A stretch of 64,000 bases of DNA from an uncultured bacterium (GTDB lineage: Bacteria > Babelota > Babeliae > Babelales > Babelaceae). Under the pieces are notes generated by a model. The model was not told where the DNA came from. It made no database searches and was given only the letters and a program-made list of their open reading frames with translations. The translations under genes and the position numbers were made by a program. Below are positions 11,647-41,329 of the stretch, in pieces. Where the stretch lies: the NCBI GenBank assembly GCA_963848965.1, contig CAWKFG010000001.1, forward strand, positions 544,001 to 608,000, read 5' to 3'. The stretch's first letter is position 1, and every line of letters starts with the position of its first letter.

Positions 11647-13593
11647 ATGAATAAAGTATTGTTAGCGCTTGCTCTAGGAATTTCGGGAAGCGTATTATAT
11701 GCAGGTGGTCAAGAGAAACGATCAGCAGATGAACATCCTCAAGTATCGCCATTAAAAAAATCGCGTACGACGGAAGAAGATGCTTCTGATAGTATACTTG
11801 CACAATTAAGAGAAGAGCTTACACAGTTTAAAGCTTCAGATATTCAGGCTTCTCTAAAGGCACTTGAAGAAAGAAACGAAAAGAATAGAGAAGAGTTTAA
11901 TAAGCTTAAAGCACGAGCAGGATCAGATACGCCTGCTTTACCAGCGCCTCCTAAACGACCTGCTGCAAAAATAACAGCAGTGCCACAATTGACTGGTCCA
12001 AAACCAGCAGCAAAAGCAAGTGATAACTCAAAAGAAAAAGAGAGCTCTCTTAGAACATCTCAAGGTAATGATCACTCAGTTAAAAAATTTAGAGCAACTA
12101 CAGATATTACTGCAAAGCCAGCTACTGGAACTCAAGATGGTGGTGTTAGTAACCCTATGTCTGCAAAACCTGCAGCTTCTCCTGAGGCCCCAAGCATTAT
12201 TAGGACTAAACAGCCGCTTATTCCTAGTTTACCAAAAGCTCCTGAGCAGACTGGTGTACCAGCTCAACTACCAATGCCTATAGTTGCTAAAGCTCCAGAG
12301 CAAACACATCTTTCTGCTCCAGTATTGCCTAAGGATTCAGAGCTTATAAGTGTACCTGCGCTTGCGCAAGCACCTCTAACAGCTAAGGCTCAAGAGATTG
12401 TAAATCTACCAGTACCAGCAGTTGCTAAACCTGCAGAAAGTGCACAATCAGAGATAGCAAAGACTACGAGAGTACAAGATTTGCTTGATGGCGGAGCTGC
12501 CGTGTCTATACCACATACTCTAAGCTTAGATAGTGGACTTTTTTCTACAAAAGAAGAGTCATTAACACCGCGTAAATTAAGTTTGTTACAAAGATTGAAT
12601 ACAATAAAAAGCCAAACAGTACAACGTCCTGCACAAAGCTCTATTTCTTGTATAATGTATTCACCTCTTACTAAAGAGTTGCTTGTAGGATGCCTTGATT
12701 GCAGTATACGAAAATACTCACAGCTTTCGCCATTATCAGGAAATAAAATTGGTGAGCATGATACTTCAGTAAAGTGTATGATTGTAGATCCTGTATCCCA
12801 AAAGTATCTTATTTCAGGTTCGTTCGACGGAGCTATAAAGGTATGGGATATTGCAGGGCAGCGATGTGTAGCATCATGGTTTGGTCATAACCGTGCTCTT
12901 CTTGCTTTCTTTATTAATCCCGAGAACCCCAATATTCTTATTTCTACTTCCGAGGATGGAACTCTGAAATTATGGGATTTAGGAAGCATTCGTCAAGCAG
13001 GAGAATTAAAGGGTGAATGTATTGTAGACAAATTTATATGTTCTCATGAGCTTACATTTAGTGAGCCTGTTACAGCAGTGACCTTTATACCAAGTGAGCC
13101 AACTGTTGCTTTCATTGGTAATGGTACTGAAATAGTGCTCTATGATTTAAGTAATGCAACCAAAGCTTATTCTTGGGATGATAATGTATTACTTAGTGCG
13201 CCTATAGCAGCGCTTTGTGGACATCCAGAAAATAGTGATTTGATAATTCTTGGGACACGAAATGGTGCGCTCTTTATATGGGATATTACAAAACCAAAAG
13301 AATCGCGCATTGTAGCCCAATTGAAAGCACCTGCATCTGTTAATATCAGCTCTTTAACAAAACTATCTATAGATTCTAAACAGCTTGTTTTACAAGCGAG
13401 TGATACTATTGCTCTTTGGAATCTTACAAATGGACGATTTATCACAAGTGTAAGAGTATCTGGGACAATTGCTAGTTTTGTGCTCGATCAAACAAAGATT
13501 GTTATAGCAACAGTTGCTGGACAACTTTTTACAGCAGATGTTATTCGTAATCAAGGAGAAATTACTGCATTTGGGCCGCTTACGGCCCTTTAA
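11647..13593 (+). CDS. Secreted protein with NLS-like motif, coiled coil, Pro/Ala-rich linker and WD40 propeller
   Basis: SGSFDGAIKVWD, GH..SEDGTLKLWD; AKP/AKAPEQT repeats. Confidence 0.85.
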   Translation: MNKVLLALALGISGSVLYAGGQEKRSADEHPQVSPLKKSRTTEEDASDSILAQLREELTQFKASDIQASLKALEERNEKNREEFNKLKARAGSDTPALPAPPKRPAAKITAVPQLTGPKPAAKASDNSKEKESSLRTSQGNDHSVKKFRATTDITAKPATGTQDGGVSNPMSAKPAASPEAPSIIRTKQPLIPSLPKAPEQTGVPAQLPMPIVAKAPEQTHLSAPVLPKDSELISVPALAQAPLTAKAQEIVNLPVPAVAKPAESAQSEIAKTTRVQDLLDGGAAVSIPHTLSLDSGLFSTKEESLTPRKLSLLQRLNTIKSQTVQRPAQSSISCIMYSPLTKELLVGCLDCSIRKYSQLSPLSGNKIGEHDTSVKCMIVDPVSQKYLISGSFDGAIKVWDIAGQRCVASWFGHNRALLAFFINPENPNILISTSEDGTLKLWDLGSIRQAGELKGECIVDKFICSHELTFSEPVTAVTFIPSEPTVAFIGNGTEIVLYDLSNATKAYSWDDNVLLSAPIAALCGHPENSDLIILGTRNGALFIWDITKPKESRIVAQLKAPASVNISSLTKLSIDSKQLVLQASDTIALWNLTNGRFITSVRVSGTIASFVLDQTKIVIATVAGQLFTADVIRNQGEITAFGPLTAL

Positions 13594-13619
13594 AAAGTGT
13601 TAACTTATTTTAATGAAGA

Positions 13620-14960
13620 GTGTATACAATGAGAACTTTATTTTACTTACTTTCTCTTGTGTTGTGCGTACAGACTGTACTCCACTGTGGTGGAGATAGT
13701 CCTAAGCGCAAACGAAATGATGATTCTTCCGAGAGTGCTTCAAGCCAAAAGAAGAAGAGATATTCGCAAGAAGAGCTGATACATATTATGAGCTTAATGC
13801 AAAAGTATCGTGAGCAGCGATTGAAAATACAGTCTCTTATAAAAGATCTTCAAAAAGGAACTGAAGAGATAGAGCAGAATATTGCATCTTTATATAAAGA
13901 ACGCGAGCAGGTTGAATCAGCAGATTCTTTCAATAGATCTGTAGAGTCTGATGAAGAAAGCGATGCTTCAACTGTAGGACGATCATCTCCTCTTTTAGCT
14001 GATTTTGATGCGATGGAAGAGATTGCTCAAGAAAAGAGAACTATGCCAGAATTGTGGCTCTTTCGGTATGATGCGCGCAGCAAGCAAGGATTTGCTTGTT
14101 ATGAAGGTAAATCTATTCGCGTATGGGATCTATCTTCGCGGCGTAGCATAGCAACTATTGCCGTTCCTGATGAAGGAGATATTTTGGATTTACGTATTCA
14201 TCCTTATAAACCACAGCATTGTATCATTGCAACGAAAGACTCAATACAAGTGCTCGGGCCAGCAGGATGCTTATGGAAAAGCAAAGTTGATGTAGGAAAG
14301 GACACTCGTGTTCTTTATATTAATCCTCATAATCAGCGGCAGTTATTTACTGGCCATGGTAATGGGATTGTACGCTTGTGGGACATTGAAACAGGAAAGC
14401 GTTTAAAAGAGTTTACTATGTTTGATACTTCCCGCGAAAATAGTAATGAAAATGCTATTTTTTCACTTTGTACTACTCAAGACAAAACGCTGATCGCTGC
14501 TACGTATAAAGGTAAAGTGAAGCTTAAAACAGAGGTCTCATCTATACCATTTCAATCTTTTCCTGCAGATGAGGAAAGTTTGCTTTATACTCATCCAATT
14601 GATAGTGGTAAGATTATTGTGGCTGGAAACGGTATAAGAATACGTAGTATACGAGGTAAAAATTGGCCACAAGCATTTAAAACTGCTGATGATGTAACTG
14701 CTGTTTGTACAATTCATAATTCATCTATGTATATTATAGCAGGTTTAAAAAATGGATCTATAGAGCTGTGGCGAGAGCTTGATGCTCATAATTACGCATT
14801 GATAACTACTTTTAGCAAATGCCATACAGGACCTATTATTTTCTTAGGGTTTGACGAAGAAAAGAACCAGCTTATTTCTGCTGGAGAGGATGGGTTAATT
14901 AAAGTGTGGGATTTAAACAAAGAGCGTACGTATGCCCATTGTGTAGATTCGCTTATATAA
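13620..14960 (+). CDS. Secreted NLS-like + coiled-coil + WD40 protein
   Basis: PKRKR..KKKR; IRVWD, GIVRLWD, SAGEDGLIKVWD; start may be ATG 13629. Confidence 0.85.
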   Translation: MYTMRTLFYLLSLVLCVQTVLHCGGDSPKRKRNDDSSESASSQKKKRYSQEELIHIMSLMQKYREQRLKIQSLIKDLQKGTEEIEQNIASLYKEREQVESADSFNRSVESDEESDASTVGRSSPLLADFDAMEEIAQEKRTMPELWLFRYDARSKQGFACYEGKSIRVWDLSSRRSIATIAVPDEGDILDLRIHPYKPQHCIIATKDSIQVLGPAGCLWKSKVDVGKDTRVLYINPHNQRQLFTGHGNGIVRLWDIETGKRLKEFTMFDTSRENSNENAIFSLCTTQDKTLIAATYKGKVKLKTEVSSIPFQSFPADEESLLYTHPIDSGKIIVAGNGIRIRSIRGKNWPQAFKTADDVTAVCTIHNSSMYIIAGLKNGSIELWRELDAHNYALITTFSKCHTGPIIFLGFDEEKNQLISAGEDGLIKVWDLNKERTYAHCVDSLI

Positions 14961-14961
14961 A

Positions 14962-15124
14962 TAAAAAGGGAGGCATATAAAACGCCTCCCATTTTACCTC
15001 CAGGACGAACCCGGAGGCTACATTTATTGTGGAAGGTAGCATTAAAACTACCTTCCTTTTTGCTTCCAGGACGAACCTGGAAGCTATACTTTTACATCTG
15101 TTATATTTCAAATATTTATTTCTA
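14962..15124 (-). ncRNA. Candidate ~160-nt sRNA made of two tandem hairpin-pair units
   Basis: TTGACA-16-TATAAT promoter with an extended-10 TG (15158-15131); two copies of a hairpin with a UUCGU loop plus a second hairpin; G-U pairs favour the minus strand; U-tail at the end. Confidence 0.6.
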
Positions 15125-15260
15125 ATATAAATTATAACACAGAAATAAATTTTGTCAAGCACTTTTTTAGAATTTTCTTAAATTTAAAATTAAAAACACC
15201 CTTTTCCTAGAAGCAAAATATGTTATAATTGGGCAAAATGTACAAACGGAAAGAGCAAAA

Positions 15261-16520
15261 ATGAGCTATAAAGTGATTGGAATGATCTGTTTTATGTGGT
15301 TGGGTTTATCTCTCTATGGAATGGAAAAGGAGCCTGTCTTAAAAGCAGCAATGCTTGAAGATGATTTTGGAGTTCTTAACGAACTTTTTGCTAAAATAGC
15401 ATTGGTTGAAAATGCCATAGAGCATTTTCTTAGTCAGGGTATTACGTCTAACATCTCTCATCGGAATTCTTTAGCTGTAGATTCAGCATATTTAAGTCCC
15501 CAGTGCAATTATATAATAGCTCAATCTGCAGGACCCGTGGTAGAAGTGTTTGATATAAGAAAATTCCCGGTAGTTGTGCCCTGTATTACGTGCCATGAAG
15601 GTGCAGCTAAATCTATAGCTATAAGCCAAGATGATAAATATATGTTAAAAGGATATCAAACTGGTATAGCAGAACTCAGCTTCCTCGAAAATTCTACTGG
15701 TAAACCATATGAGCTTTTTGGGCATACGGATGCTATTACTTCTGTAGCATTCAGTAAAGATAGGAGTTATGTGCTAACAGGATCACGGGATGGAACTGCA
15801 CGCATATGGGATATAAAAGCCCTTGAGGCTGTCAAATCATATGTTCTTACAGGTCATACAAAAGGTATTACTTCCGTAGCCACAAGCCCATCCAGCGACA
15901 AAGTGCTAACAGGATCATGGGATAAAACTGCACGAATATGGGATATAAGTAATCCTGAGTCTGTTACGTCATATGAACTTAAGGGCCATAAAGAAGATAT
16001 ACAGTGGGTACAATTTAGTCCAACGGGCACCTATGCTATAACAAGAGATAAAACAGAAGCATATTTATGGAATATAAGTGATCTCAAATCTATTACATCA
16101 CATCGTATAGGTGATAGAAGAGCTGTAAGCGCTATAGTATTTAGCCCAGATGAAAAATATCTCTTGATAGGATATTTTGAAGGTGCTGCACAAATGCTCG
16201 ATATACCTACTTTAAAGGGAACTGCTGTGTCATATACTCTTAAGGGTTTTACTAATCTTTGTTCTGGAGCATTTAGTCCAACAGGATTGCATATGCTGCT
16301 TGGATCGGCTGATGGTAGTGTAAAGCTTTGTACTATAACTGGCACTGACATTGTTGAAAAAACTAAGCTGGATGGGCATAATGGTTGGGTTTCGTCAGTA
16401 GTATGGAGCGTAAACGGAAGATATATTTTAACAGCATCGTGGGATGGAACGCTAGTACTACGAGATATGACTAGTCTTTGCACAGCTACAGAGCTTGCTT
16501 CAAAACGTAAGCAGATTTAG
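15261..16520 (+). CDS. Secreted WD40-repeat protein
   Basis: Canonical GHTxxITSVAxS..LTGSxDxTARIWD repeats; signal peptide then MEK. Confidence 0.9.
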   Translation: MSYKVIGMICFMWLGLSLYGMEKEPVLKAAMLEDDFGVLNELFAKIALVENAIEHFLSQGITSNISHRNSLAVDSAYLSPQCNYIIAQSAGPVVEVFDIRKFPVVVPCITCHEGAAKSIAISQDDKYMLKGYQTGIAELSFLENSTGKPYELFGHTDAITSVAFSKDRSYVLTGSRDGTARIWDIKALEAVKSYVLTGHTKGITSVATSPSSDKVLTGSWDKTARIWDISNPESVTSYELKGHKEDIQWVQFSPTGTYAITRDKTEAYLWNISDLKSITSHRIGDRRAVSAIVFSPDEKYLLIGYFEGAAQMLDIPTLKGTAVSYTLKGFTNLCSGAFSPTGLHMLLGSADGSVKLCTITGTDIVEKTKLDGHNGWVSSVVWSVNGRYILTASWDGTLVLRDMTSLCTATELASKRKQI

Positions 16521-16602
16521 GTTCATACTTCTACTATGTTTTTCTTGTATATTTTTGGTACCTCATTTAAGCTTTATATACTTTTTAAAGAGGGTTCATA
16601 GT

Positions 16603-17979
16603 ATGAAGAAATGGTTGTTATTAGTAATAGGTATTATAGGTGCTAGTATATACTGGTATGTAAAGCATCCAGTTCTTCTACAAGTTCCTAAAAATCAGCA
16701 ACTCTCTGGCTGGACAGTTGTTATACCGGGAATCACAGGAGATCTTGCTAAACGTAAGCTTATACCTGCATTGTACCAGCTGTATAAAAAGGGTATGCAA
16801 AGTATTATTATTGGTACTGGTCGGCGTGATGCTGCTATTACTGATATTCTTAAAGATGCTAAAAAATTCATTCAAGCAGTTGATGAGCAGCTCTGGAAGC
16901 AATTTGCTCAGATGGTTGTCTATCACAAATTAGATCCAAGCGTACCGACAGATTTTAAAGCACTTGCACAAAGCATTGTAAAACTAGAAGCATCTCACAA
17001 TTTTTCTGGTAAACGTCTTGTATTTCTCTCTCTTCCTGCTGATGTTTTTTGTCAAACTACCAAACTATTAGTTGAAAATGGTATTATTGAGCCTCATAAA
17101 TCTCAGTATATCCTCTATGAAAAACCATTTGGGTGGGACCATGCATCGGCACAAGAAATTAATAAGTGTACTACTTCTTTACTACCTGATAAGCAACTGT
17201 ATCGTATAGATCATTATGTTGCTAAAGGGCTTACGCAAACACTTGCGTATCTTTCTGGCACAAACCTTTTATTTGCTCACGTGTGGGATGGAAAAGCAAT
17301 TGATACAGTATCTGTTCTCTTTCATGAAACATTGGGTATAGAAGGGCGAGGTTCATTTTATGATCGTTATGGTGCGATAAAAGATGTTATGCAAAATCAT
17401 ATGTTACAACTGCTTGCGTTTTTTGCTCTTAATCTTTCTTCTGCAAAAACTTTAGATGAAAGAGCTCATCAAAAAGCTGCATTCTTAAACTCTTTATCAG
17501 TGCAAAATGTACGTCGAGGTCAGTATGAAGGATATCTTGCTGAAAAAGATGTTTCTCCTCATTCAAAGACTGAAACGTATGCTGCAGTTACACTTATAAG
17601 TAATGATCCTCGGTGGAAAGGGGTACAATTTATTTTAGAAACAGGTAAAGCACTTGCTCAAAAGAAAACAGAACTTGTTGTAACCTTTAAACCAGTAAAC
17701 CAAAGTCTTCCAAATCAGCTTACTGTGCAATTTGCGCCAAAAGAGCTTATGTCATTGCGCCTCAATGGCCTTGAAAGCAAACCATTTGACCTTGCTTCTA
17801 GTAGTTTTGAATATCCTGAGGCCTATGAAGCACTTCTTGCCGATGTCCTTACTGAGAAATTAGACTATTCAGTAAGCTTTGAAGAAATTGAAGCGCAGTG
17901 GCGTTTAACAGATAGCATAAGGACTCTGACATCAGAAGTCTCAATCTATCCTAAGGGTATATATCTTGACAAAGTATGA
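16603..17979 (+). CDS. zwf: Glucose-6-phosphate 1-dehydrogenase with an N-terminal hydrophobic anchor
   Basis: GITGDLAKRKLIPAL, EKPFG, RIDHY, GAIKDVMQNH, RWKGV, ETGK; start set at the ATG after GAGGG. Confidence 0.9.
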   Translation: MKKWLLLVIGIIGASIYWYVKHPVLLQVPKNQQLSGWTVVIPGITGDLAKRKLIPALYQLYKKGMQSIIIGTGRRDAAITDILKDAKKFIQAVDEQLWKQFAQMVVYHKLDPSVPTDFKALAQSIVKLEASHNFSGKRLVFLSLPADVFCQTTKLLVENGIIEPHKSQYILYEKPFGWDHASAQEINKCTTSLLPDKQLYRIDHYVAKGLTQTLAYLSGTNLLFAHVWDGKAIDTVSVLFHETLGIEGRGSFYDRYGAIKDVMQNHMLQLLAFFALNLSSAKTLDERAHQKAAFLNSLSVQNVRRGQYEGYLAEKDVSPHSKTETYAAVTLISNDPRWKGVQFILETGKALAQKKTELVVTFKPVNQSLPNQLTVQFAPKELMSLRLNGLESKPFDLASSSFEYPEAYEALLADVLTEKLDYSVSFEEIEAQWRLTDSIRTLTSEVSIYPKGIYLDKV

Positions 17980-18292: not shown

Positions 18293-19138
18293 ATGAATAG
18301 AAGAATATTACTATTTTTTAGTATATGTTTTAGTGGAATTTTAGTCGGAATGCACAATCTTGATAAGACTCAGCCTTGCTACCAGTATAGATTGGCAAAA
18401 CAAGCAGATGTACCAGCTTTACTTGACTTGATTAATACTCAAGCAATCCGTGATAATACAAAGATTGTTATTTTGCCAAAAGTATTTAGAGAAGGTGCTT
18501 TGCGATCGGCGATAGAAAAAAAGCGCATTTTTATTGCTTTAGATCAAGACCGTATTATTGGTTATAAAAAATTGTTTATAATGATGTGCGATCATGAAAA
18601 AAGCGATATCCTTAACGATGAAATTCGTTGCATTAATAATGAACAGAATTGTGTATTTGCAGGTTATATAGATAATGATACTATCTTTGTTCCCTGTGTA
18701 CCGCGCTTAGCTCATAATTGTTATAGCATTTGTATATACAATGGTGGTGATTTTACGTTGCCATCGTATCGTGGCAAGGGCATCAATCAACAGCTTACAA
18801 AAATGGCGTTGCTTTCTCTTGTTGCTGATGTGAAAGACTATATGCATAATCAAGGTGTAAATACTATAACTATGGTTTATGGAGTTACTCAAGCAAATGC
18901 TGGAATATATCCAGGAGCACCATCAGACCGTACTGTAAGTATTAGTAAAGCCTTTAAAGTGTTTATTCACATGGTGGAGGGTTACTTCAAACCGATTACT
19001 TTGCAGCATCAACGATATCGTGCATTTATGCCAACTTTTGATCCAGACTCTCAAGTATTACAGCCGCTGTCAGATGACCAATCCATTCCCGGCTTTGGTT
19101 GCGTATTAACATATATAGTAAGGAGAGAGCATGAATAA
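18293..19138 (+). CDS. Secreted GNAT-fold acetyltransferase-like protein
   Basis: YRLAKQADVPALLDLIN strand-helix start; TLPSYRGKGI acetyl-CoA motif A; signal peptide. Confidence 0.6.
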   Translation: MNRRILLFFSICFSGILVGMHNLDKTQPCYQYRLAKQADVPALLDLINTQAIRDNTKIVILPKVFREGALRSAIEKKRIFIALDQDRIIGYKKLFIMMCDHEKSDILNDEIRCINNEQNCVFAGYIDNDTIFVPCVPRLAHNCYSICIYNGGDFTLPSYRGKGINQQLTKMALLSLVADVKDYMHNQGVNTITMVYGVTQANAGIYPGAPSDRTVSISKAFKVFIHMVEGYFKPITLQHQRYRAFMPTFDPDSQVLQPLSDDQSIPGFGCVLTYIVRREHE

Positions 19139-20414
19139 ACAACTGTTACTTATAACAATCATACTGAGTGTCTGCGGAATATTTTTTGCTTTTTATCACA
19201 TTGATTTTAAAGGGGGCGATAACCGTCCCCTGAATGAACAATTAGTCTCTTTTTTGCAAGACTATATCCGCATTAATACTACTCATCCTCATCCAGAGTA
19301 TGAGAAAGCTATAAGCTTTTTGAAAAAACATGCGCTGGCTGATGGATTTAACTATCAAGAAGTCCTTTTACCTTCTGGTAAAAAGGTTTTCTTGCTTGAA
19401 TTGAAAGGTACTGATACATCGTTGCCAGCACTTGCATTGAATCATCATATGGACGTTGTACCAGCGAGTTTAGAAGGGTGGATAAAAGCTCCTTTTGCAG
19501 GTGAAATACATGAAGGCAGCATTATTGGACGAGGAACTCAAGATATGAAAGGTATTGGTGCAACCCATTATTTTGCATTGAAGGAGCTTAAGAAAGAGGG
19601 ATTTGTTCCGCGCCGTACAATTTACTTATTTGCAGTTCCTGATGAAGAAATTGGAGGCTTTACGGGTACTAAGGAATTTGTTGAAACACCACAGTTTAAT
19701 ACATTAAATATTGGTTTTATTGTTGATGAAGGACATGCGTCAGGTAATAATCAAGTACTTGATATTAAAGTGTCTGAGCGAAAACCGATTCAAGTACTTG
19801 TAACAAGTAAAGGTGAATTAGCGCATGGATCACACCTTATGTGTCGTAATGCTATACATGCGCTTGTTCAATTTCTTAACGCTATGGTTTTGGTTCACCA
19901 GAAACAGCAAGAGCAGATAGGGATTAAGCAACCAGGTCAGCTCTTGTCGTGTAATCTTACTTCTTTAACAGCAGGTATTAAAAAAGAGGGTGGCCATATT
20001 GCATTGAATGTAGTTCCTGACAGTGCACAAGCAACAATTGATATTCGTGTGCCGCCTACTATGAAAAAGCAGGATGTTATAGCGTTATTTGAAAATGCTA
20101 TAAAACAGTATCAACACTTAACCTATACTATCCTTGCGCAGGCAGATGAGGAGCCAGAGTTGGGAGATTATAAAACACCGCTTTACCGGGCTTTGAGTAA
20201 CGTTCTACAGAAATTTGATCTTAGAGCAGAGCCGCATTATTTTGAGGCATCAAGTGATCTAAGATTTTATCAAGCTCGAGGTATTAATGGAGTTGGGTTT
20301 ACTCCGTTTACTATAACTGATAATATTCATGGAGTTAATGAATCTGTGCCAATTGATCATTTAATACGAGGAAAAGATATTACAATGCGGTTTATTAAGG
20401 ATTTTTGTTCTTAA
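19131..20414 (+). CDS. M20 family aminoacylase (ACY1-like) with a signal/anchor
   Basis: NHHMDVVP, GRGTQDMK, PDEEIGG, DEG and IHGVNE metal-binding motifs. Confidence 0.85.
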   Translation: MNKQLLLITIILSVCGIFFAFYHIDFKGGDNRPLNEQLVSFLQDYIRINTTHPHPEYEKAISFLKKHALADGFNYQEVLLPSGKKVFLLELKGTDTSLPALALNHHMDVVPASLEGWIKAPFAGEIHEGSIIGRGTQDMKGIGATHYFALKELKKEGFVPRRTIYLFAVPDEEIGGFTGTKEFVETPQFNTLNIGFIVDEGHASGNNQVLDIKVSERKPIQVLVTSKGELAHGSHLMCRNAIHALVQFLNAMVLVHQKQQEQIGIKQPGQLLSCNLTSLTAGIKKEGGHIALNVVPDSAQATIDIRVPPTMKKQDVIALFENAIKQYQHLTYTILAQADEEPELGDYKTPLYRALSNVLQKFDLRAEPHYFEASSDLRFYQARGINGVGFTPFTITDNIHGVNESVPIDHLIRGKDITMRFIKDFCS

Positions 20415-25992: not shown

Positions 25993-27513
25993 ATGTCTAT
26001 AAAACAACTTGGTCGTATACTTGTATTTTTATCTATAGGATCATTTGTTTATTCTATGGAGCCGGTAGATACGACGCCGGTAAGTCCTAAGGTGCATAGA
26101 CCGTTCCTTACTATTGAAGATATGAGGGAATGGAGACAGAATGCATCGATAAGAAAAGAGATAGCTAAAGCAGAAAGTTTGAAGTTGAAAGCTCTTAAAG
26201 CAGGGATTAACGCGTTAACTCCTGCAGAGGCGTTGCGCAAAGTTAACCAAGAGTTTGAGCATGCCAAAGGTGTTATAGTTGCTTGTGATAGAGTGCCTAA
26301 GAATACGTCTTCAAAGCAGACTGAGCTTGAAAAGCAAAGACAGGAGCTTGTTAAAATTAAGAGAGTATTTGATGATACTCCTGATATGTATGTTTATGCA
26401 CAAGAGCATGAGCAGGCTTTGTATGCGCAGTTAGTACCAGACATGATTACGCTTATAGAGCTTGGTGTGCAGTTAACAGAATTAACTAAGCGTGGGGTAG
26501 TCTTTGAAAAGTTGGCAACTGAATTTCAGGGTAAGCTTTCTGTTTTAATAGAAAATTATAATAAGGTAATTCGTTCTTTTGATCAATTTCTTAAGAAAGA
26601 GATGGCTGATTTAGAAACGGCACTTGTTCGTAAAGAGCAAGAGGTTCAGAAAGAAGCTGCTGCTGTTGAGACTATGCAAGAAGGTATAAGAGCTCGTAAA
26701 GAGCAAATCACAAAAGGGTTTAAGGTACAAAAAAACGCTCGTGCGATTTCAAATAACCTTGAACCGCAGCTTAAGCAAGCAGAGGCAAAGAAAGAGCACT
26801 CAGTACAACAATGTGCGATATTGTTTCATAGCTTTAAACAAAGCTTACAAAATTATGCTCAAAAGCAAACATATTGGGCTATTAATGATGTAGGTGCATT
26901 ACTTAATGCTATGATTGCACAGCTTGATAAAGAGTTTATAATAAGGGCATTTAATAGACTTGAAGCTGATCAAGCTCTAAGAAATATGGTAGGAACGGCT
27001 ATAGAACGATTTAAAGCAATTCCAGGCCTTTATGAAGGGCTTATGAGAACGCTTCAGAATTATTTGCTGCTTATATGTTCTCCAGATCTAGCACCGAGAG
27101 CAAAGGGTTATGAATGGGAGATTACAGTTGCTTGCTGGCTTTATAAGACGCTTGTTGAGCATCAAGATACAATGCGTATGAATTCTATGAAGAGCTTGCG
27201 TTCAAGAGATTTTTCACGTGAATTTGATATTGTTCTTGAAGAGCAAAGGGTGCTTATTGAGTGTAAGAATCGTCATTGGCATACTACTCATTTTAGTAAG
27301 ATTCATCAGCAATTTTTAGATCAAAAGGAAATTGCTCAAGAGTTGAAGTATTTGTTTATGATTGTTTCTCGCCATACATTAGATTATGAGATGAGAAGGT
27401 TTCTTCGTCAAAAAGATATTCTCTATCTTGAGCCGGGAACATCACTCGAGCTTTCTATTCTTAAAGAGCCGTGCAATACATTGTATACAGATACCTATTG
27501 TACACATAAATAA
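25993..27513 (+). CDS. Secreted coiled-coil protein with a C-terminal PD-(D/E)XK nuclease-like domain
   Basis: Signal peptide then MEP; GYEWE...REFDIV...LIECK restriction-endonuclease-type motifs. Confidence 0.7.
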   Translation: MSIKQLGRILVFLSIGSFVYSMEPVDTTPVSPKVHRPFLTIEDMREWRQNASIRKEIAKAESLKLKALKAGINALTPAEALRKVNQEFEHAKGVIVACDRVPKNTSSKQTELEKQRQELVKIKRVFDDTPDMYVYAQEHEQALYAQLVPDMITLIELGVQLTELTKRGVVFEKLATEFQGKLSVLIENYNKVIRSFDQFLKKEMADLETALVRKEQEVQKEAAAVETMQEGIRARKEQITKGFKVQKNARAISNNLEPQLKQAEAKKEHSVQQCAILFHSFKQSLQNYAQKQTYWAINDVGALLNAMIAQLDKEFIIRAFNRLEADQALRNMVGTAIERFKAIPGLYEGLMRTLQNYLLLICSPDLAPRAKGYEWEITVACWLYKTLVEHQDTMRMNSMKSLRSRDFSREFDIVLEEQRVLIECKNRHWHTTHFSKIHQQFLDQKEIAQELKYLFMIVSRHTLDYEMRRFLRQKDILYLEPGTSLELSILKEPCNTLYTDTYCTHK

Positions 27514-27525
27514 GGTAAGGCAGTA

Positions 27526-28242
27526 CTAAAGTGCTGCCTTATCATTTTTTAAAGCTACCGATTCTGTTGGTAGTTTGTTTTTTGATAATTTATCAGCAAG
27601 GCGAGTTGGTTCTGGTAATCGGTAGCCTTTGCTGCAGGCAAGTACATACTTGATACTTGTTTCAAGGCTTATAAGGTGACCTACTGAGATAAACAAAGGA
27701 GCTACGTTTGTTCGTGTACGTACTACAGCTCCAATACATTCTCCTTTACCTACAAGTGGTACCCAAGAGCCAGCTTGTTTGCCTAAGCACTGTTCATCAA
27801 ACTTTCCTGTAAGTAGCGATTTTCCGCAGCCAATAGTAGGTATACTGAGCCAGAGGCCAAGATGTGAAGCGATACCAATCCGTCTTGGATGAGCTATGCC
27901 CATACCGTCAACCATAATAAGGTCTGGCTTCTGCTGAAGCTTTGCAAATGCTCCTAGCATAGAGGGTATTTCTCGAAAGGAAAGGAGGCCTGGTATGTAA
28001 GGCATACGTAAAGGCTCTTCATGAACATGGTATTCTATCATGCGTAACTCTGGATAAGAAAGCAAAACAACTGCAGCTCGAGCCATATTTTTTTCTTGAG
28101 TAAGTGCTACATCTATGCCAGCTATAGTACGTACCTCTGTTATAGTATCCTTACAGATGATCTGCTTTGCCAATTCTCGTTGAAGGGCAATAGCTTGTTG
28201 CTCTGTGAGATTCCAGGTATGCAATGGCAGTTTTGTGTTCAT
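27526..28242 (-). CDS. nfi: Endonuclease V
   Basis: AGIDV, PYIPGLLSFRE, DGMGIAHPRRIGIASHLG, YRLPEPTRLAD. Confidence 0.97.
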   Translation of the reverse strand: MNTKLPLHTWNLTEQQAIALQRELAKQIICKDTITEVRTIAGIDVALTQEKNMARAAVVLLSYPELRMIEYHVHEEPLRMPYIPGLLSFREIPSMLGAFAKLQQKPDLIMVDGMGIAHPRRIGIASHLGLWLSIPTIGCGKSLLTGKFDEQCLGKQAGSWVPLVGKGECIGAVVRTRTNVAPLFISVGHLISLETSIKYVLACSKGYRLPEPTRLADKLSKNKLPTESVALKNDKAAL

Positions 28243-28281
28243 TCTAAAACTCCAGTAAGCACGTAAATCAGGCCTTTTTTA

Positions 28282-29370
28282 TTAACACTGGTGTCCGTAG
28301 CCGCCAGATGATGCCCAGGGTCTTCTACATCTCCAGCAGAATTCATGTTTACAATGTTTACAGGTCATATGATTGCATCCTTGATTCTTTTCGATCATAG
28401 CTCTACAAGAAGGACAACGTTGGGCGCCGAATTTTTGAGCATATTCATCAACAACATCTTGTGCGCACTCACTGTTATTTCCAAAAGGAGAGCTTTTATG
28501 TGGGTGTAAGCAGCGAGCACAGTATGTTTGCTTGCATTTTTGACAATTTATTTCGATTGCAGCATCCCATTCATAAATAAAAGCGAAACCGCATTTAGGG
28601 TTTGGGCAGTATTTGAGACCAGGTGTTTTTTTAAGTGTCTGCTCAAGTACAATGGTATCAAATTCTTCTAGCTCTTGTTTATTTTGTAGAATCAGTTCAA
28701 GATCTTGACGGGTATGTTCTTGTCTACATCCGAACTGAGGGCATAATGGAATTTCTTTATTTCTTTTGGAGACCATAAAGTGAGCATTAAGACATTCTCT
28801 GCAGTAGATGTGACCGCAGTGTAATCTTATTGCATCTGGTCTTGCTATGCGAGGGTTAAAGCAAATGTGACATACAAAGTACTCTTGTGCATAATTAAAT
28901 TGAGGACGCTCTGCAAAGATGTTATCAGTATGTTGACGAGCTGGTGCTGCAGGTCGTGCAATGTCAGGATTTTCAGTGTAAGTATGAGGGCGAGCTGCGG
29001 GTTCTTCAGGCATTGAAGATTGACGAGCAGCAGGTTCTGCAGCTCGTGCAGTAGCAGCGTCCTCAGTAAAGTGGTTATGAGTATAAGGGTGAGCTGTTGG
29101 TTCTGCAGGCATTGAAGATTGAGGATTTTCAGTAGGGGAGCCGTAGGCAGTAGATGGTCTGGGAGTAGATTCTTGTTGTTTTCTCTTTTTTATAAGGGAA
29201 TGTAATACAATACCAGCACATACGGAGCCCAGAATAAGTGCTACTATATGTCTTTTTGATGAAGTTCTCTTTCTTACTGTTTGTTCGTGTACTGTTGGTA
29301 ATGGGATAGTAGTACCTCCTATACTTATAAGAATAACAAAAGTGCTTGCTCTCAGGGTGGCTCTTTTCAT
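28282..29370 (-). CDS. RBR (RING1-IBR-Rcat) E3 ubiquitin ligase-like protein
   Basis: C3HC4 RING1; IBR CPNPKC..CQKC..CARC..H..C; Rcat CPSC..IEKNQGCNHMTC..C..EFCWRC; signal peptide plus TM helix. Confidence 0.9.
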   Translation of the reverse strand: MKRATLRASTFVILISIGGTTIPLPTVHEQTVRKRTSSKRHIVALILGSVCAGIVLHSLIKKRKQQESTPRPSTAYGSPTENPQSSMPAEPTAHPYTHNHFTEDAATARAAEPAARQSSMPEEPAARPHTYTENPDIARPAAPARQHTDNIFAERPQFNYAQEYFVCHICFNPRIARPDAIRLHCGHIYCRECLNAHFMVSKRNKEIPLCPQFGCRQEHTRQDLELILQNKQELEEFDTIVLEQTLKKTPGLKYCPNPKCGFAFIYEWDAAIEINCQKCKQTYCARCLHPHKSSPFGNNSECAQDVVDEYAQKFGAQRCPSCRAMIEKNQGCNHMTCKHCKHEFCWRCRRPWASSGGYGHQC

Positions 29371-29442
29371 AAAATTCCTTTATCTACAAGTGAACTCCGC
29401 AATTCAGCTTATATTCCTAACGCATTTGACGAAGAAGGCTTT

Positions 29443-30387
29443 TTAGCCAAAGAAGCAGTTATGTCCGTATGATGTCCAGCGGGCTCCGCAGGTCCAGCAA
29501 AACTCATATTTGCATTGTTGGCAGGTCATATGAGGACATCCGCCATTCTTTTCAATCATAGCTTTGCAAGCAGGGCATCGTTTAGCGCCAGCTTTTTGAG
29601 CAAACTTATCAACTGTATCTTGTGGACATCCACCATTTCCGAAAAGATTTGCCCAGAAAGAGTTACTATGCGGTTGTAAACAACGAGCGCAGTAGGTCTG
29701 CTGACACTTTTGACAGGTCATGTCAGTTGCTATATTACATTCATTAATAAAAGCGAAACCGCATTTAGGATTTGGGCAGTATTTGAGGCCGCGTACCTTT
29801 TTAAGTCCCTCTTCTGCTGCTATGTTATCAAATTCTGAAAGATCTTTTTTGTCCGGTAGAGTTTTTTCTAGATCTTCTCGTGTACACTCACGTCTGCAGC
29901 CAACTTGAGGACATCGTGGTAGATTTTTATCTTTCTTAGATATATTAATATGACCATTAAGGCAATCTCTGCAGAAGCTATGACCGCAGTGTAATCTTAC
30001 TATATCTTCTTTAGCTACTCGATAGTCAAAGCAAATACTACAATAATGATAATTTCCATAATTATAGTAATTATTTGAGTAAGGATCGTTAATCCTTTGC
30101 CCTTTAGCAAAGTAGTCATCAGGATTGGGACGAGCAGAGGGTTCTGGTGCTGTAGCATTTGCAAATTTTTGCTGCTTTACCTTTTTTACAAGGTAATGAA
30201 GTGCAATACCCGCACATATAGAGCCAATGATCCAGGCTGCTATGCGTTTAGTAGAGCGTGTTTTTTTAGCTGGTTTTTCTTCCGTTGGAGTTAATAGGGG
30301 ATCTGAGTCAGATGGTGCTGGGGCGGTAGTAAATACCATGCTTGCAAGGATGATAAAGATAAATGGTCTAAGAGTTGTTTTTTTCAT
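29443..30387 (-). CDS. RBR E3 ubiquitin ligase-like protein, tandem paralog
   Basis: Same architecture; Rcat CPAC..IEKNGGCPHMTC..C..EFCWTC. Confidence 0.9.
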   Translation of the reverse strand: MKKTTLRPFIFIILASMVFTTAPAPSDSDPLLTPTEEKPAKKTRSTKRIAAWIIGSICAGIALHYLVKKVKQQKFANATAPEPSARPNPDDYFAKGQRINDPYSNNYYNYGNYHYCSICFDYRVAKEDIVRLHCGHSFCRDCLNGHINISKKDKNLPRCPQVGCRRECTREDLEKTLPDKKDLSEFDNIAAEEGLKKVRGLKYCPNPKCGFAFINECNIATDMTCQKCQQTYCARCLQPHSNSFWANLFGNGGCPQDTVDKFAQKAGAKRCPACKAMIEKNGGCPHMTCQQCKYEFCWTCGARWTSYGHNCFFG

Positions 30388-30527
30388 ATAATTTCCTTTT
30401 CCTTCAAATGCTGTTTAGTAGAGATAGAGTCTTATATGTAGTTTACTTTAGCATACCCTCCTAGTATAATTCACCAAAATCCTTCTGCAAGTGCTCTTCT
30501 TTTACAAGAAAATTGCCGTGAGCTAAA

Positions 30528-30612
30528 AATATTATTTCATTTTTGGTGTCATTATTGAAATAATATTCTATACTGAAAGATATTATTTCATTTGGGACAT
30601 TATTTTTGAAAT
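30528..30612. promoter_or_regulatory. Inverted/direct repeat operator upstream of the fic gene
   Basis: AATATTATTTCA (30528) and TGAAATAATATT (30556) inverted pair, plus ATATTATTTCA (30580) and TGAAAT (30607). Confidence 0.55.
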
Positions 30613-30624
30613 GAGGCTAGTTTT

Positions 30625-31752
30625 ATGCGTAATACAGGGCATTATGAAGTTATTGGAAACACGGAATACTTTATACCCGACCATTTACCTCCAAAAGATC
30701 CGCCATTGGTAATGGATGCAGAGATAATAGTGCTTTTTGGAGATGCTATGCTGGAGCTGGGTAAACTTAATGAGATGACAAAAAGGTTGCCAGATGATGA
30801 GCGTTTTATAAAGGCATATATTATTAAGGAAGCGCTCCTTTCGTCTTCTATTGAAGGTATTCATACAACACTTGTAGATATTTTTACACAACCGCTTTTA
30901 GAATCAAAGCCGAGTAAGGATACGCAGTTGGTAATGAATTATACAAAAGCGCTTTCTGTAGCGCTTGCGATGATTCAAAAAGAAGAACTGCCTATTTCTT
31001 CTCGTGTTATTTTGAAAGCACATGAAGCTTTGATGCAAACGGGGACCGGTAGTAAGTCTGATCCTGGAAATTATCGAAAGCAATCAGTAAAGGTGGGCAA
31101 TCTTATACCGCCACCACCAATGCGGATTCCTGGCCTCATGGCAGAGCTTGAGCGGTATATGAATGAAGATGAAGCGTTGCCGGTGCTTATTAGAGCAGGT
31201 CTTGCGCATGTCCAATTTGAAGAGATTCATCCATTTTTAGATGGCAATGGTCGTATTGGCAGACTTTTAATTGTTTTAATGCTTGTGCAAAAGGGGATTT
31301 TATCAGAGCCAATATTATATCCTTCTTATTACTTTAAGAAGTACCATTTTGAGTATTATCAACGGTTAGATCGCGTAAGAACGCATGGCGATTTCGAAGG
31401 TTGGATTAAATTCTATCTTGCTGCAGTACGAGAAAGTAGTATTGATGCTCATCGACGTGCAAAGGATATAGAGTTATTAGAAGAAAACTTAGCTTTTATT
31501 ATTAAAAACGAAAAACGTTTTAGTGCTAAAATGAGAGAATTAAGACTTCAGGCGCTTGCTCTTCTGTTTGGCTATCCGATTATTAGTATAGGCGAATTAA
31601 GTGCACAACTTGGTGTATCATATAATACTGCAAGCCAAATTATAACTAATTTTGTTGAGCTTGGGTTTCTTGTAGAAGAGACGCAGCAAAAACGAGGACG
31701 CTTATTTAAATTTAAACCATATCTTGATGTGCTTGAACGAGAATATAAGTAG
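30625..31752 (+). CDS. Fic family protein with N-terminal inhibitory motif and C-terminal HTH
   Basis: HPFLDGNGRIGR Fic motif; SSSIEG inhibitory motif; LSAQLGVSYNTA HTH. Confidence 0.93.
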   Translation: MRNTGHYEVIGNTEYFIPDHLPPKDPPLVMDAEIIVLFGDAMLELGKLNEMTKRLPDDERFIKAYIIKEALLSSSIEGIHTTLVDIFTQPLLESKPSKDTQLVMNYTKALSVALAMIQKEELPISSRVILKAHEALMQTGTGSKSDPGNYRKQSVKVGNLIPPPPMRIPGLMAELERYMNEDEALPVLIRAGLAHVQFEEIHPFLDGNGRIGRLLIVLMLVQKGILSEPILYPSYYFKKYHFEYYQRLDRVRTHGDFEGWIKFYLAAVRESSIDAHRRAKDIELLEENLAFIIKNEKRFSAKMRELRLQALALLFGYPIISIGELSAQLGVSYNTASQIITNFVELGFLVEETQQKRGRLFKFKPYLDVLEREYK

Positions 31753-31968: not shown

Positions 31969-32373
31969 TCAGTCTTTGTTTCTCCAATTTTCTAGAGAGA
32001 TAACATTTGCCAATCTACCAAATTCACGTATATTAGAGGTTACAAGAATAAGGTTATGGGCAAATGCTGTTCCTGCAATTATACAGTCATAGGCGCCAAT
32101 TATTTGTGATCTTAGACGAGCTCTTAGTAGAGCTGTACAAACTGCTTCTTGAGAATCAAAGGGAACTGTTTCTATCTCTGCAATTAGAGCTTGCCACAGA
32201 GGGCGTAACTTGTTTTCTCGTTCAGGATTGAGCTGTAATCCATATTCAATTTCAAGAACGGTAACGGTGGATACTGCAAGATCACTACTAGAAGATTGCT
32301 TAAAACGCTCGATAGTATAAGGTATTTTCTTAAAAAAGTCTGAAATAACACAGGTGTCAAGAAGATACTTCAT
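31969..32373 (-). CDS. vapC: VapC PIN-domain toxin
   Basis: YLLDTCVI, EIEYG, IGAYDCIIAGTA, LVTSNIREF, LENW. Confidence 0.92.
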   Translation of the reverse strand: MKYLLDTCVISDFFKKIPYTIERFKQSSSSDLAVSTVTVLEIEYGLQLNPERENKLRPLWQALIAEIETVPFDSQEAVCTALLRARLRSQIIGAYDCIIAGTAFAHNLILVTSNIREFGRLANVISLENWRNKD

Positions 32374-32606
32374 TGTAAAGGGTCCTCATCTGGCTCTATA
32401 AGACTTTCGCGCAAAGATGTAAAGTCTGGTATGTCAGATACTGGCTCAAATTCAAAAAAGTGTGCAGGCCACTCTCTAGGACCATGTTGCTTAAGCCATA
32501 ACTCTAGGGCTTCATTAATAATAGAATTCCTGCTTTTATTTAATGTTTTACTGAGTTTATTAACTTGTTCAGCGAGTTCTTTCTTAACATAAACTGTAAG
32601 GTTCAT
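32370..32606 (-). CDS. Ribbon-helix-helix antitoxin (VapB-like)
   Basis: MNLTVYV..SRNSIINEAL RHH pattern, acidic tail, 4-bp overlap with vapC. Confidence 0.85.
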   Translation of the reverse strand: MNLTVYVKKELAEQVNKLSKTLNKSRNSIINEALELWLKQHGPREWPAHFFEFEPVSDIPDFTSLRESLIEPDEDPLQ

Positions 32607-40043: not shown

Positions 40044-40099
40044 GTTAAATTTTAAACAGAGAATGGTCAAATTTTGAACAGTTGGTGGTCAAATTTACG
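40044..40099 (+). promoter_or_regulatory. Three direct repeats with a 22-bp period before the ATPase start
   Basis: GTTAAATTTTAAACA (40044), GTCAAATTTTGAACA (40066), GTCAAATTTACGATG (40088). Confidence 0.7.
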
Positions 40100-41329
40100 A
40101 TGTTTCATAGAAATATAAAAGAAAAACTAGAAAAAGCTCTTTCCTTTAGCCCTGTTGTGCTACTTACAGGAGCGCGTCAGACAGGGAAGTCAACCTTAAT
40201 GACAGCAATTGCGCAAGAGCATAAATACTCCTTCCATACTTTTGATAGCCTAACAACATTGGCAGCAGCATCGAGTGATCCTTCTGGCTTTATAGCTGGT
40301 ATCCAAAAACCAGCAATTTTAGATGAAGTTCAACGAATACCAGAGATATTTTTACCTATAAAGCATGAAGTAGATCAAAATAGGCAGCCTGGGCAGTTTG
40401 CTCTTACTGGATCTGCAAATCCACTCCTTATTCCCACACTTGGCGATACCCTTGCAGGCAGAATAAGTATTTTAGAATTGTTTCCTCTGTCTCAAGGAGA
40501 ACTTTTAGGCGTTTTTGATGATTTTATAGATTTTGTATTTGGTGATACATATCCAGCTATAACTAGAATCGCAAGAAAGGATCTTATAGAAAAAATAATG
40601 GTTGGAGGCTATCCAAATGTTCAATTACTAGATGAGGAAATGCGAGATCAGTGGTTTGATAATTACATTACAACTGTTTTAAAGCGCGAAGTAACAGAGC
40701 TTGCAAAAATTGAAGGCATAGTTGAGTTTCCTCAATTATTGCGCCTTTTGGCAACACGTGCGGGAACTATTTTAAATGTCTCAGAACTTTCTCGTGCAAG
40801 CATGCTGGTTAACACTACACTTCGTCGCTACCTTGCACTTCTACAAACCGTATTTCTAGTGAACTTTTTACCTTCATGGGGTATTAATTTAAGTAAGCGA
40901 TTGGTGAAATCTCCAAAAGTATATCTTGTAGATACCGGTCTCCTGAGCTATTTATTGGGTATCAATCATGATAGACTTTCTGTCGATGTCACCCTAGTGG
41001 GCAATCTCTTTGAAAACTTCGTAATAATGGAGCTCAAAAAACAAGCGACCTGGTCAAAACGACGTGTTAATCTTTATTATTATCGAACACTGGATGGTAT
41101 TGAAGTTGATCTTGTACTAGAAGATAAGGCAGGAAACATTGTAGGCATTGAAGTAAAAGCATCAGAAACAGTAACTGCTGCAGACTTTAAGGGTCTTAAA
41201 CATATGCAAGAAACCTATAAAAATAGATTCCTAAAAGGAATTGTATTATATGCAGGCAGTGATAATGTTCCTTTTGGCAAAAAACTCTTTGCATGGCCTC
41301 TCTCCTGCCTGTGGGCAAAACCTGCTTGA
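40100..41329 (+). CDS. AAA_14 ATPase with a DUF4143 nuclease-like C-terminus
   Basis: GARQTGKS, ILDEVQ, LTGS, GGYP, KSPKVYLVDTG, FEN, EVDLV..IEVK. Confidence 0.9.
   Translation: MFHRNIKEKLEKALSFSPVVLLTGARQTGKSTLMTAIAQEHKYSFHTFDSLTTLAAASSDPSGFIAGIQKPAILDEVQRIPEIFLPIKHEVDQNRQPGQFALTGSANPLLIPTLGDTLAGRISILELFPLSQGELLGVFDDFIDFVFGDTYPAITRIARKDLIEKIMVGGYPNVQLLDEEMRDQWFDNYITTVLKREVTELAKIEGIVEFPQLLRLLATRAGTILNVSELSRASMLVNTTLRRYLALLQTVFLVNFLPSWGINLSKRLVKSPKVYLVDTGLLSYLLGINHDRLSVDVTLVGNLFENFVIMELKKQATWSKRRVNLYYYRTLDGIEVDLVLEDKAGNIVGIEVKASETVTAADFKGLKHMQETYKNRFLKGIVLYAGSDNVPFGKKLFAWPLSCLWAKPA

Follow-up and report, generated by a model that had tools for sequence, protein, structure and literature searches.

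Two tandem genes for putative exported RBR-type E3 ubiquitin ligases in a Dependentiae genome

The 64,000-nucleotide stretch of DNA analysed here (hereafter the window; contig C1, positions 544001-608000) comes from a 1.73-Mb, five-contig genome of the Dependentiae (Babeliales). Two adjacent minus-strand genes within it, denoted RBR-A and RBR-B, encode predicted proteins in which a RING1-IBR-Rcat (RBR) module, the hallmark of a class of E3 ubiquitin ligases, follows a leader-like N-terminus, a hydrophobic helix and a linker (Table 1). An earlier note on this DNA, made from the sequence without database searches, had placed two tandem RBR open reading frames (ORFs) at 28282-30387, and both are present there, on that strand and with those coordinates. 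The genes are separated by 72 nt, and each start codon is preceded by an AAGGA-type ribosome-binding site (RBS), namely GGAAAAGGAAA 4 nt upstream of the RBR-B ATG and AAGGA 5 nt upstream of the RBR-A ATG. The modules of the two proteins are 60% identical over 199 aa, and the proteins are sisters in the tree described below (support 100); the pair thus represents a tandem duplication. The endonuclease V gene that follows is possibly co-transcribed with the RBR genes: a scan of positions 27300-30800 revealed no convincing terminator between them, and the counts of promoter and terminator sites in this region did not exceed those in shuffled sequence. A search of sequencing runs listed no RNA run for this locus and one DNA run, with a share of 0.07.

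Both proteins match the Pfam models IBR_1/IBR (72.7/62.0 bits for RBR-A and 59.8/62.7 bits for RBR-B) and zf-C3HC4, which corresponds to RING1 (24.5 and 27.4 bits), above the cut-offs of 27, 24.3 and 21 bits for IBR_1, IBR and zf-C3HC4, respectively. The zinc ligands of the C3HC4-type RING1 are C167, C170, C185, H187, C190, C193, C210 and C215 in RBR-A, and C116, C119, C134, H136, C139, C142, C159 and C164 in RBR-B; across 90 family sequences these positions are invariant or near-invariant. The IBR lies between RING1 and Rcat, with two Pfam IBR stretches in each protein, and the spacing of its final ligand exceeds the family consensus (H-x10-C in RBR-A and H-x13-C in RBR-B). Rcat is covered by the IBR_1 match (residues 317-353 of RBR-A and 269-305 of RBR-B) and contains the motifs EKNQGCNHMTC (at 327) and EFCW (at 343) in RBR-A, with predicted catalytic residues C332, H334 and E343, and EKNGGCPHMTC (at 279) and EFCW (at 295) in RBR-B, with C284, H286 and E295. 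The histidine and glutamate of each protein are those that we take to be equivalent to H433 and E444 of parkin. The catalytic cysteine, along with 16 other alignment columns, is invariant in all 90 aligned family members. The RBR catalytic triad has been described (PMC11354881).

In a phmmer search against all PDB chains, the best match of RBR-B is ARIH2 (RBR-B 113-310 aligned with ARIH2 136-336, E 2.2e-21), followed by ARIH1, CUL9, HOIL-1, parkin and HOIP. The alignment pairs EKNGGCPHMTC of RBR-B with EKNGGCNHMQC of ARIH2. The complete RING1-IBR-Rcat with the Cys/His of GC(N/P)HMTC and the EFCW motif that had been read from the letters is thus confirmed, by Pfam for both proteins and by the PDB alignment for RBR-B. 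An AlphaFold model of RBR-B residues 111-314, built from an alignment of 22 relatives, has a mean pLDDT of 90 and a pTM of 0.64, and a Foldseek search with this model gave 61 PDB matches at E<=0.001. Among the matches listed (ranks to 50), all are ARIH2, HOIL-1, parkin, HHARI, RNF216 or HOIP, with only 27-28% identity to the Ariadne-type structures. Superposition of the model gives 6.9-8.2 A with complexes in an active or transthiolation state (7b5l, 8eaz, 8eb0 and 9sdx) and 18-26 A with the autoinhibited forms of ARIH2, HHARI and parkin, a weak hint from modelling of an open, non-autoinhibited domain arrangement.

There is nothing C-terminal to Rcat: RBR-A stops at the last zinc ligand and RBR-B three residues beyond it. 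In agreement with the earlier note, which saw no Ariadne or ubiquitin-like (UBL) domain, Pfam gave no match to the Ariadne domain (PF19422 or PF21235), UBA, UBL or any other extra domain in either protein, and no recognisable substrate-binding domain. In every sequence and modelled-fold feature by which computation can recognise the RBR family, RBR-A and RBR-B are RBR proteins. By sequence they are outside the Ariadne subfamily, lacking both the C-terminal Ariadne domain and the N-terminal UBA-like domain, each of which is present in the eukaryotic Ariadne-type comparison set.

The N-terminal region was characterized by Kyte-Doolittle (KD) hydropathy, with a leader called where the mean of a ten-residue stretch close to the N-terminus (KD10) reached at least 2.2. 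Each putative leader comprises a basic n-region, a hydrophobic core of 10-13 residues and a P-x-P-[ST] c-region, has no lipobox cysteine and, we infer, is cleaved after T26 in RBR-A and S26 in RBR-B. The layout MK[KR]..[LF]R, hydrophobic core, P-x-P-[ST], basic stretch, helix and KK-x-x-QQ is common to RBR-A, RBR-B and P0002, a 307-aa protein that is 58% identical to RBR-B and is the only close relative in a collection of 5.8 billion proteins. Neither the helix core G-S-x-C-A-G-I-x-x-H nor the KK..QQ flank varies among the three sequences, and in all, 12 positions in or adjoining the helix are invariant in them. The N-termini of RBR-A and RBR-B are 52% identical (E 4.6e-12), and within this genome the leader-helix module is confined to these two proteins. 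The linkers are poorly alignable. In RBR-A, the linker contains 17 Ala and 15 Pro in 94 residues and a direct repeat (28981-29026 versus 29080-29125; 46 nt, 87% identity, spacing 99 nt) that corresponds to a duplication of about 33 codons; the repeat was seen only by a direct-repeat search, and Tandem Repeats Finder reported nothing relevant in either gene. The RBR-B linker is short, rich in N, Y, P and A, and no repeat was found in it. Of the features that had been claimed, the pattern of a Sec signal peptide (basic n-region, h-region of 7-15 residues, c-region with small residues at -3/-1) is suggested by eye and by KD10, and a putative transmembrane (TM) helix with basic flanks by hydropathy.

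Table 1. Features of the RBR locus (positions in the window; KD19, mean hydropathy of the helix)
Feature	Residues or length	Position	Strand	Basis
RBR-B gene	314 aa, stop codon included	29443..30387	minus	ORF; Pfam IBR/IBR_1/zf-C3HC4 above cut-off
RBR-A gene	362 aa, stop codon included	28282..29370	minus	ORF; Pfam matches
RBR-B putative leader	1-26, MKKTTLRPFIFIILASMVFTTAPAPS	30310..30387	minus	KD10 maximum 3.00; conserved with RBR-A and P0002
RBR-B hydrophobic helix	49-67, IAAWIIGSICAGIALHYLV	30187..30243	minus	KD19 1.95; basic on both sides
RBR-B linker	68-112	30052..30186	minus	Low complexity, N/Y/P/A-rich; poor alignment between paralogues
RBR-B RING1-IBR-Rcat module	113-314	29446..30051	minus	phmmer ARIH2, AlphaFold, Foldseek
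RBR-B predicted catalytic codon	Cys284	29536..29538	minus	GC-P-H-M-T-C; His286, Glu295; aligned with Cys of ARIH2 GCNHM
RBR-A putative leader	1-26, MKRATLRASTFVILISIGGTTIPLPT	29293..29370	minus	KD10 maximum 2.38
RBR-A hydrophobic helix	42-60, IVALILGSVCAGIVLHSLI	29191..29247	minus	KD19 2.44; flanks RKRTSSKRH / KKRK
RBR-A Ala/Pro-rich linker	61-160	28891..29190	minus	Composition; imperfect internal duplication
RBR-A RING1-IBR-Rcat module	161-362	28285..28890	minus	Pfam; all zinc ligands conserved
RBR-A predicted catalytic codon	Cys332	28375..28377	minus	GC-N-H-M-T-C; His334, Glu343
Endonuclease V gene (nfi)		27526..28242	minus	Pfam Endonuclease_5, E 2.4e-74; 39 nt downstream of RBR-A

Both RBR genes are internal to a 643-kb contig and lie between the endonuclease V gene and a Fic gene, with recF, dnaN and the genes for glucose-6-phosphate dehydrogenase and dCTP deaminase as other neighbours. 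They contain no introns, and their G+C content at third codon positions (GC3), 0.26 and 0.30, falls within the range of five neighbouring genes (0.23-0.30). Given the contig, the housekeeping neighbours and GC3, eukaryotic or viral contamination is not a serious option; together with the AAGGA RBS and the phylum-wide family described next, these features bear out the earlier view of RBR-A and RBR-B as bacterial genes.

The earlier note had also suggested a search for IBR domains across bacteria, and such a search finds RBR genes well beyond this genome. In a six-frame search, IBR matches were detected in 46 of the 261 genomes of the phylum, this genome included, representing 31 of 145 genera; 45 of these 46 genomes have matches above the curated cut-off, and several consist of a single contig. 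Among good-quality genomes, the fraction is 32 of 189. A single Dependentiae genome contains up to 13 matches, compared with none in 14 control genomes. This genome itself encodes a third RBR protein of 640 aa (C1:620703-622625, plus strand, 14 kb past the window end), with a leader ending in YAMMPDE, a coiled coil, ankyrin repeats and a C-terminal RBR that carries EKNGGCPHMTC; its closest library relative, P0011, is 77% identical over the RBR. By the KD10 measure, 19 of 25 Dependentiae RBR proteins and all three of this genome are leader-like, compared with 3 of 19 Ariadne-type controls and none of six named eukaryotic RBRs. A phmmer search of 1.84 billion representative proteins gave 11,436 matches at E<=0.001; among the best 150 of these, 89 of the 148 Met-initiated proteins are leader-like, and the named proteins among the matches listed are an oomycete RBR and plant RSL1-like RBRs.

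A FastTree phylogeny of 210 RBR modules, for which the library was sampled as the 150 nearest proteins along with 19 Ariadne-type sequences, contains a cluster (support 90) that unites 86 of 88 leader-bearing representatives. The cluster includes all three proteins of this genome, 23 of the 25 from Dependentiae and 8 of the 10 found by the motif scan described below, and contains no named eukaryote; the plant and oomycete RBRs fall outside it. Sequences without a full-length domain match (L007_266, L008_651, L020_271, L034_451, L034_478, L036_423, L038_266, P0179, P0181, P0183 and P0187) were left out of the tree, as were P0002 and P0003. The 90 leader-bearing members all contain an IBR, 9 also contain ankyrin repeats and one contains WD40 repeats; of the 48 families that they match, the 25 commonest do not include PF19422. 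A TM-like segment occurs between leader and RBR in 19 of 126 relatives (in at least 2 of the 19 it is probably an ankyrin helix) and after the RBR in 7 of 126. On sequence grounds, RBR-A and RBR-B belong to a phylum-wide leader-plus-RBR family. Short RBR variants occur in other Dependentiae, at the loci L007 (identical to L038), L029, L034 and L036; some seem to miss a part of the module (matches of 150-160 aa), and L007 and L029 have a hydrophobic C-terminal tail after the RBR, similar to tail-anchored eukaryotic RBRs.

Outside the phylum, a scan of 185,579 species genomes for EKxxGCNHMxC, a narrow pattern that misses RBR-B itself, yielded 15 loci. At E<=0.001, 14 of these match an RBR, three of them as fragments only. 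These loci include an isolate of Parendozoicomonas haliclonae and metagenome-assembled genomes (MAGs) labelled Myxococcota and Bdellovibrionia. The IBR model matches 22 of 63 genomes of the Endozoicomonadaceae, the family of animal symbionts to which P. haliclonae belongs, in open frames of about 100-1500 aa; one protein of this family (L046) has an N-terminus that is not leader-like. L040, in a Cryomorpha MAG, was rejected as an RBR locus for want of a match at E<=0.001, and L045, L047 and L051, fragments on short contigs only, were not counted as evidence.

Compared with known RBR proteins, RBR-A and RBR-B combine familiar elements in a different arrangement. With the Ariadne RBRs (ARIH2, ARIH1/HHARI; PDB 7od1, 5udh, 7b5l) they share the RING1-IBR-Rcat order, EKNGGC-x-HM-x-C and a histidine at Cys+2, but instead of an Ariadne or UBA-like domain they have the N-terminal leader and helix. 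Because the Ariadne domain is missing, neither Ariadne autoinhibition nor activation by neddylated cullins can work in them in the same way. In the membrane-anchored RBRs RNF144A/B, RNF19A/B, RNF217 and plant RSL1, the module is likewise tethered by a single helix, which is located C-terminal to the RBR; in RBR-A and RBR-B, in contrast, the helix is N-terminal and follows the leader, so that they are not tail-anchored proteins, and the RNF144/RSL1-like arrangement is found only in the 7 of 126 Dependentiae relatives with a C-terminal helix. Giant viruses (Klosneuvirus, Fadolivirus, Hokovirus, Yasminevirus and others) encode RBRs that yielded 45 BFVD matches at E<=0.001 (best 1e-14, identity 20-26%). 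Like RBR-A and RBR-B, these are protist-associated, often short and devoid of the Ariadne domain; however, viral RBRs are synthesized within the cytoplasm of the host and require no signal for export, whereas RBR-A and RBR-B carry a putative leader.

Bacterial E3 effectors include the RING/U-box proteins NleG, LubX and GobX, the HECT-like SopA and NleL, the NEL proteins IpaH/SspH, and SidC. All of these use host E1 and E2, as proposed here for RBR-A and RBR-B, and the HECT-like, NEL and SidC ligases also employ a catalytic cysteine. To our knowledge, none contains an RBR module, and they are delivered by type III or type IV secretion. A RING ligase of Simkania (PMC12591485) belongs to the same group of effectors. 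RBRs have been described as found throughout eukaryotes (PMC3305615), and in the available text of papers on bacteria and ubiquitin (PMC8003559, PMC13728172, PMC12591485) they appear only as a host class. The literature search gave no description of a bacterial RBR ligase within the text accessible, in line with the earlier note, which knew of no characterised bacterial RBR effector; supplementary tables could list IBR domains. The 'bacterial Rbr' of the literature, and 'RBR' in a Legionellales preprint, turned out to be rubrerythrin. The nearest parallel in delivery is within the phylum, where ankyrin proteins of Babela massiliensis and Chromulinavorax destructans, like RBR-A and RBR-B, have a eukaryote-type domain preceded by a Sec-type leader, and type II/Sec is the one route in evidence (PMC4378268, PMC6561590, PMC4776705). 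Babela has been noted to encode secreted deubiquitinases as well as an F-box and a RING protein. The available text of these Dependentiae genome papers, supplementary tables aside, does not mention RBR or IBR: neither 'IBR' nor 'ariadne' occurs in PMC4378268, and neither 'IBR' nor 'ubiquitin' in PMC4776705.

The genome offers a possible export route. Three adjacent secretin-domain genes (C4:767163-774663) have open frames of 1153, 818 and 796 aa, and neither the VirB4-type ATPase, a marker of type IV secretion, nor FHIPEP, a marker of type III and flagellar export, was matched in the genome. A type II system with two gspD genes was found in all seven TM6 genomes studied (Yeoh 2016, PMC4776705). 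For Chromulinavorax, 44% of coding sequences have been reported to carry putative signal peptides, and the bacterium is reported to have outer-membrane vesicles and to replicate in the cytoplasm of its host, where the mitochondrion wraps it (Deeg 2019, PMC6561590); ankyrin proteins with signal peptides have been argued to be secreted into the amoeba cytoplasm (Pagnier 2015, PMC4378268). In the window, 33 of 47 ORFs of at least 150 aa are leader-like, including 14 of 15 ankyrin and all four WD40 genes. As for ubiquitin machinery, the E2 model UQ_con has no match in the genome and is also silent in the control genomes. The sole ubiquitin-like match is a 128-aa ORF 16 kb before the window (C1:528125-528511, minus strand), which matches PF00240 only partially (positions 1-41, 29.8 bits) and lacks the C-terminal Gly-Gly.

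With moderate confidence, based on sequence and models, we interpret RBR-A and RBR-B as exported, host-directed RBR E3 ligases of eukaryotic derivation that would use the E1 and E2 of the host, in a Dependentiae parasite of protists. The leader would direct the proteins to Sec, with release by a secretin-type (type II-like) pathway or in vesicles, as part of a Sec-dependent, host-directed secretome. In the host cytosol, RING1 would bind a host E2~ubiquitin (UBE2L3/UBE2D-like), and the Rcat cysteine would take over the ubiquitin as a thioester before handing it on to substrates. The hydrophobic helix, with the small-xxx-small spacing of GSxCAG, may tether the enzyme to a membrane, which could be that of a host organelle, the vacuole, the bacterial surface or the bacterial inner membrane; such a tether would make membrane-proximal proteins the targets. 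The more specific version, anchoring in a host membrane with the RBR facing the cytosol, is one that we put forward tentatively, at somewhat below even chances. Given the absence of an Ariadne, UBL or REP element, the enzymes are probably not autoinhibited in the manner of ARIH1 or parkin, and we infer that they may be constitutively active. Bolder still, and in our view probably wrong in at least some of its parts, is the combined proposal that Dependentiae and, independently, other bacteria such as the Endozoicomonadaceae hold a large undescribed RBR arsenal, that the Dependentiae export theirs by Sec/type II, and that RBR-A and RBR-B are minimal, non-autoinhibited forms held in the host membrane through a conserved dimerising helix.

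Several observations weigh against export of active ligases. The RBR, with its six zinc sites and about 24 cysteines, would need to be unfolded and free of metal during passage through the periplasm. A cleavable leader with a 19-residue helix behind it (KD 1.95-2.44) is the layout that textbooks give for type I inner-membrane proteins, and under ordinary Sec rules a stop-transfer helix after the leader would hold the RBR back in the cytoplasm of the bacterium, which contains no ubiquitin. The positive-inside rule does not orient the helix, as basic residues flank it on either side. The leader and helix calls come from hydropathy heuristics, whose leader criterion flagged 3 of 19 Ariadne-type eukaryotic controls, and the [A/G/S]-Met-[D/E/Q] ending that most putative secreted proteins of the window carry is missing from the RBR-A and RBR-B leaders. 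Retention in the inner membrane, with the leader cleaved and the RBR serving some other zinc-finger or scaffold role, or meeting the host only through lysis or shed inner membrane, would accommodate the leader-helix layout (KD19 2.44 and 1.95) and the unusual leaders; it would also fit the conservation of the N-terminal module beyond the needs of a greasy anchor (12 positions invariant in three of three sequences) and the ease with which zinc-binding, cysteine-rich domains fold in a reducing cytoplasm. We nevertheless consider it unlikely: the genome has no E2 match and a single partial ubiquitin-like ORF; 107 of 126 relatives lack a helix in the middle segment, which points to full export as the ancestral design; both paralogues retain all catalytic residues, which argues for selection for ligase chemistry; and a +5 basic N-terminal helix flank on the periplasmic side would be unusual. 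Display on the bacterial surface, facing the host cytoplasm, where the enzymes would ubiquitinate host proteins that touch the cell or remodel a ubiquitin coat that marks it for autophagy, appears very unlikely. An anchor is present, three secretins could carry the protein through the outer membrane, and for Chromulinavorax the host cytoplasm is the direct site of replication (PMC6561590); however, such replication is known for Chromulinavorax and not for this organism, and the sequences contain no outer-membrane sorting signal and no lipobox cysteine. Moreover, alpha-helical anchors are rare in the outer membrane of Gram-negative bacteria.

The active-site pattern GC.H[MVLI].C is present in only 15 of the 25 Dependentiae RBR proteins. 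The catalytic histidine is thus not conserved family-wide, with variants such as GCLYVTC and GCDYVTC, and some family members may not be standard ligases. This loss, and the absence of a recognisable substrate-binding domain in RBR-A and RBR-B, would suit exported pseudo-ligases or decoys that sequester host E2~ubiquitin or ubiquitin. For RBR-A and RBR-B themselves we regard this as highly improbable, given that both keep the Cys, His and Glu and that the catalytic cysteine, needless in a pure decoy, is invariant in 90 of 90 sequences. The tree described above has a weak backbone, with 79 of 199 inner branches unresolved. Mis-binned eukaryotic or giant-virus DNA, a thought suggested by the prevalence of RBRs in eukaryotes (PMC3305615) and by the 45 BFVD matches, carries next to no weight against the position inside the 643-kb contig between the endonuclease V and Fic genes, the lack of introns, the RBS before both genes, GC3 equal to that of housekeeping genes, and the occurrence of the family across the phylum (46 of 261 genomes, among them several that consist of one contig).

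The genes around the RBR pair had been regarded as a library of F-box-like receptors, with cooperation of ARIH1 and SCF as the analogy; neither idea is supported. The window contains 15 ankyrin genes, most of them at 35784-62207, which form a paralogous family with a leader ending in [G/S]-M-[E/Q] and a helical N-terminal domain that starts with (S/T)YLxLLPQELxQEL, and four WD40 beta-propeller genes in tandem (10485-16520, plus strand), all leader-like. None of the 19 N-termini of these neighbours matches the F-box Pfam models (PF00646/PF12937) at E<=0.1; PF12937 has no match in the whole genome and is equally silent in all 14 control genomes. An AlphaFold model of the ankyrin N-terminal domain (pLDDT 89) yielded no PDB fold match at E<=0.001, and the domain has no Pfam match either. 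The LLPQEL motif bears at most a distant resemblance to the F-box that could reflect a distant relationship. Weak UBM matches of neighbouring proteins (E 0.007-0.08) are below the cut-off and were disregarded. As for the analogy, cooperation of ARIH1 with SCF presumably depends on the Ariadne domain (the title of PDB entry 7b5l serves as a pointer); with this domain absent, there is no structural basis for the comparison, and a link to SCF is unlikely.

Three genes for AAA_14 plus DUF4143 ATPases without leaders (40082-41329, 46321-47637 and 51218-52531, plus strand) alternate with the ankyrin genes every 5-6 kb or so, which suggests segmental duplication of an ATPase-plus-ankyrin unit. Two further proteins have a eukaryote-type domain behind a leader, a 413-aa zf-MYND protein (58205-59446, minus strand) and a 179-aa DnaJ-domain protein (56340-56879, plus strand). 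Glucose-6-phosphate dehydrogenase (16495-17979, plus strand; internal MKKWLLLVIGIIGA after an upstream TTG) and an M20 peptidase (19131-20414, plus strand) have strongly hydrophobic N-termini. Next to RBR-B lies a gene for a Fic/Fic_N protein with a C-terminal helix-turn-helix (30625-31752, plus strand), followed by a short gene pair that resembles a PIN-toxin/antitoxin module (31969-32606, minus strand); an integrase fragment with only the SAM-like N-domain is found at 5692-6429 (minus strand).

What is new about RBR-A and RBR-B is not the mechanism: a known class of enzyme is seen here in a new host kingdom, in a new architecture and with a new proposed logic of delivery. Amoeba-associated bacteria already borrow domains of the ubiquitin system, so the surprise for effector specialists would be only moderate. 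Should the interpretation of RBR-A and RBR-B as exported ligases be correct, they would belong to the first class of bacterial effectors with an RBR mechanism, through which the repertoire of bacterial effectors would gain the third canonical E3 mechanism, and would provide a natural 'always-on' RBR core. It would also raise the question of how a six-zinc, cysteine-rich enzyme survives passage through the periplasm. Compact RBR cores, about 200 residues long and free of autoinhibitory domains, would provide material for structural and biochemical work on RBRs. The family is present in about one-sixth of the sampled Dependentiae genomes and about one-third of those of the Endozoicomonadaceae, and its well over a hundred compact RBR genes, open to testing, are candidates for host manipulation by Dependentiae.

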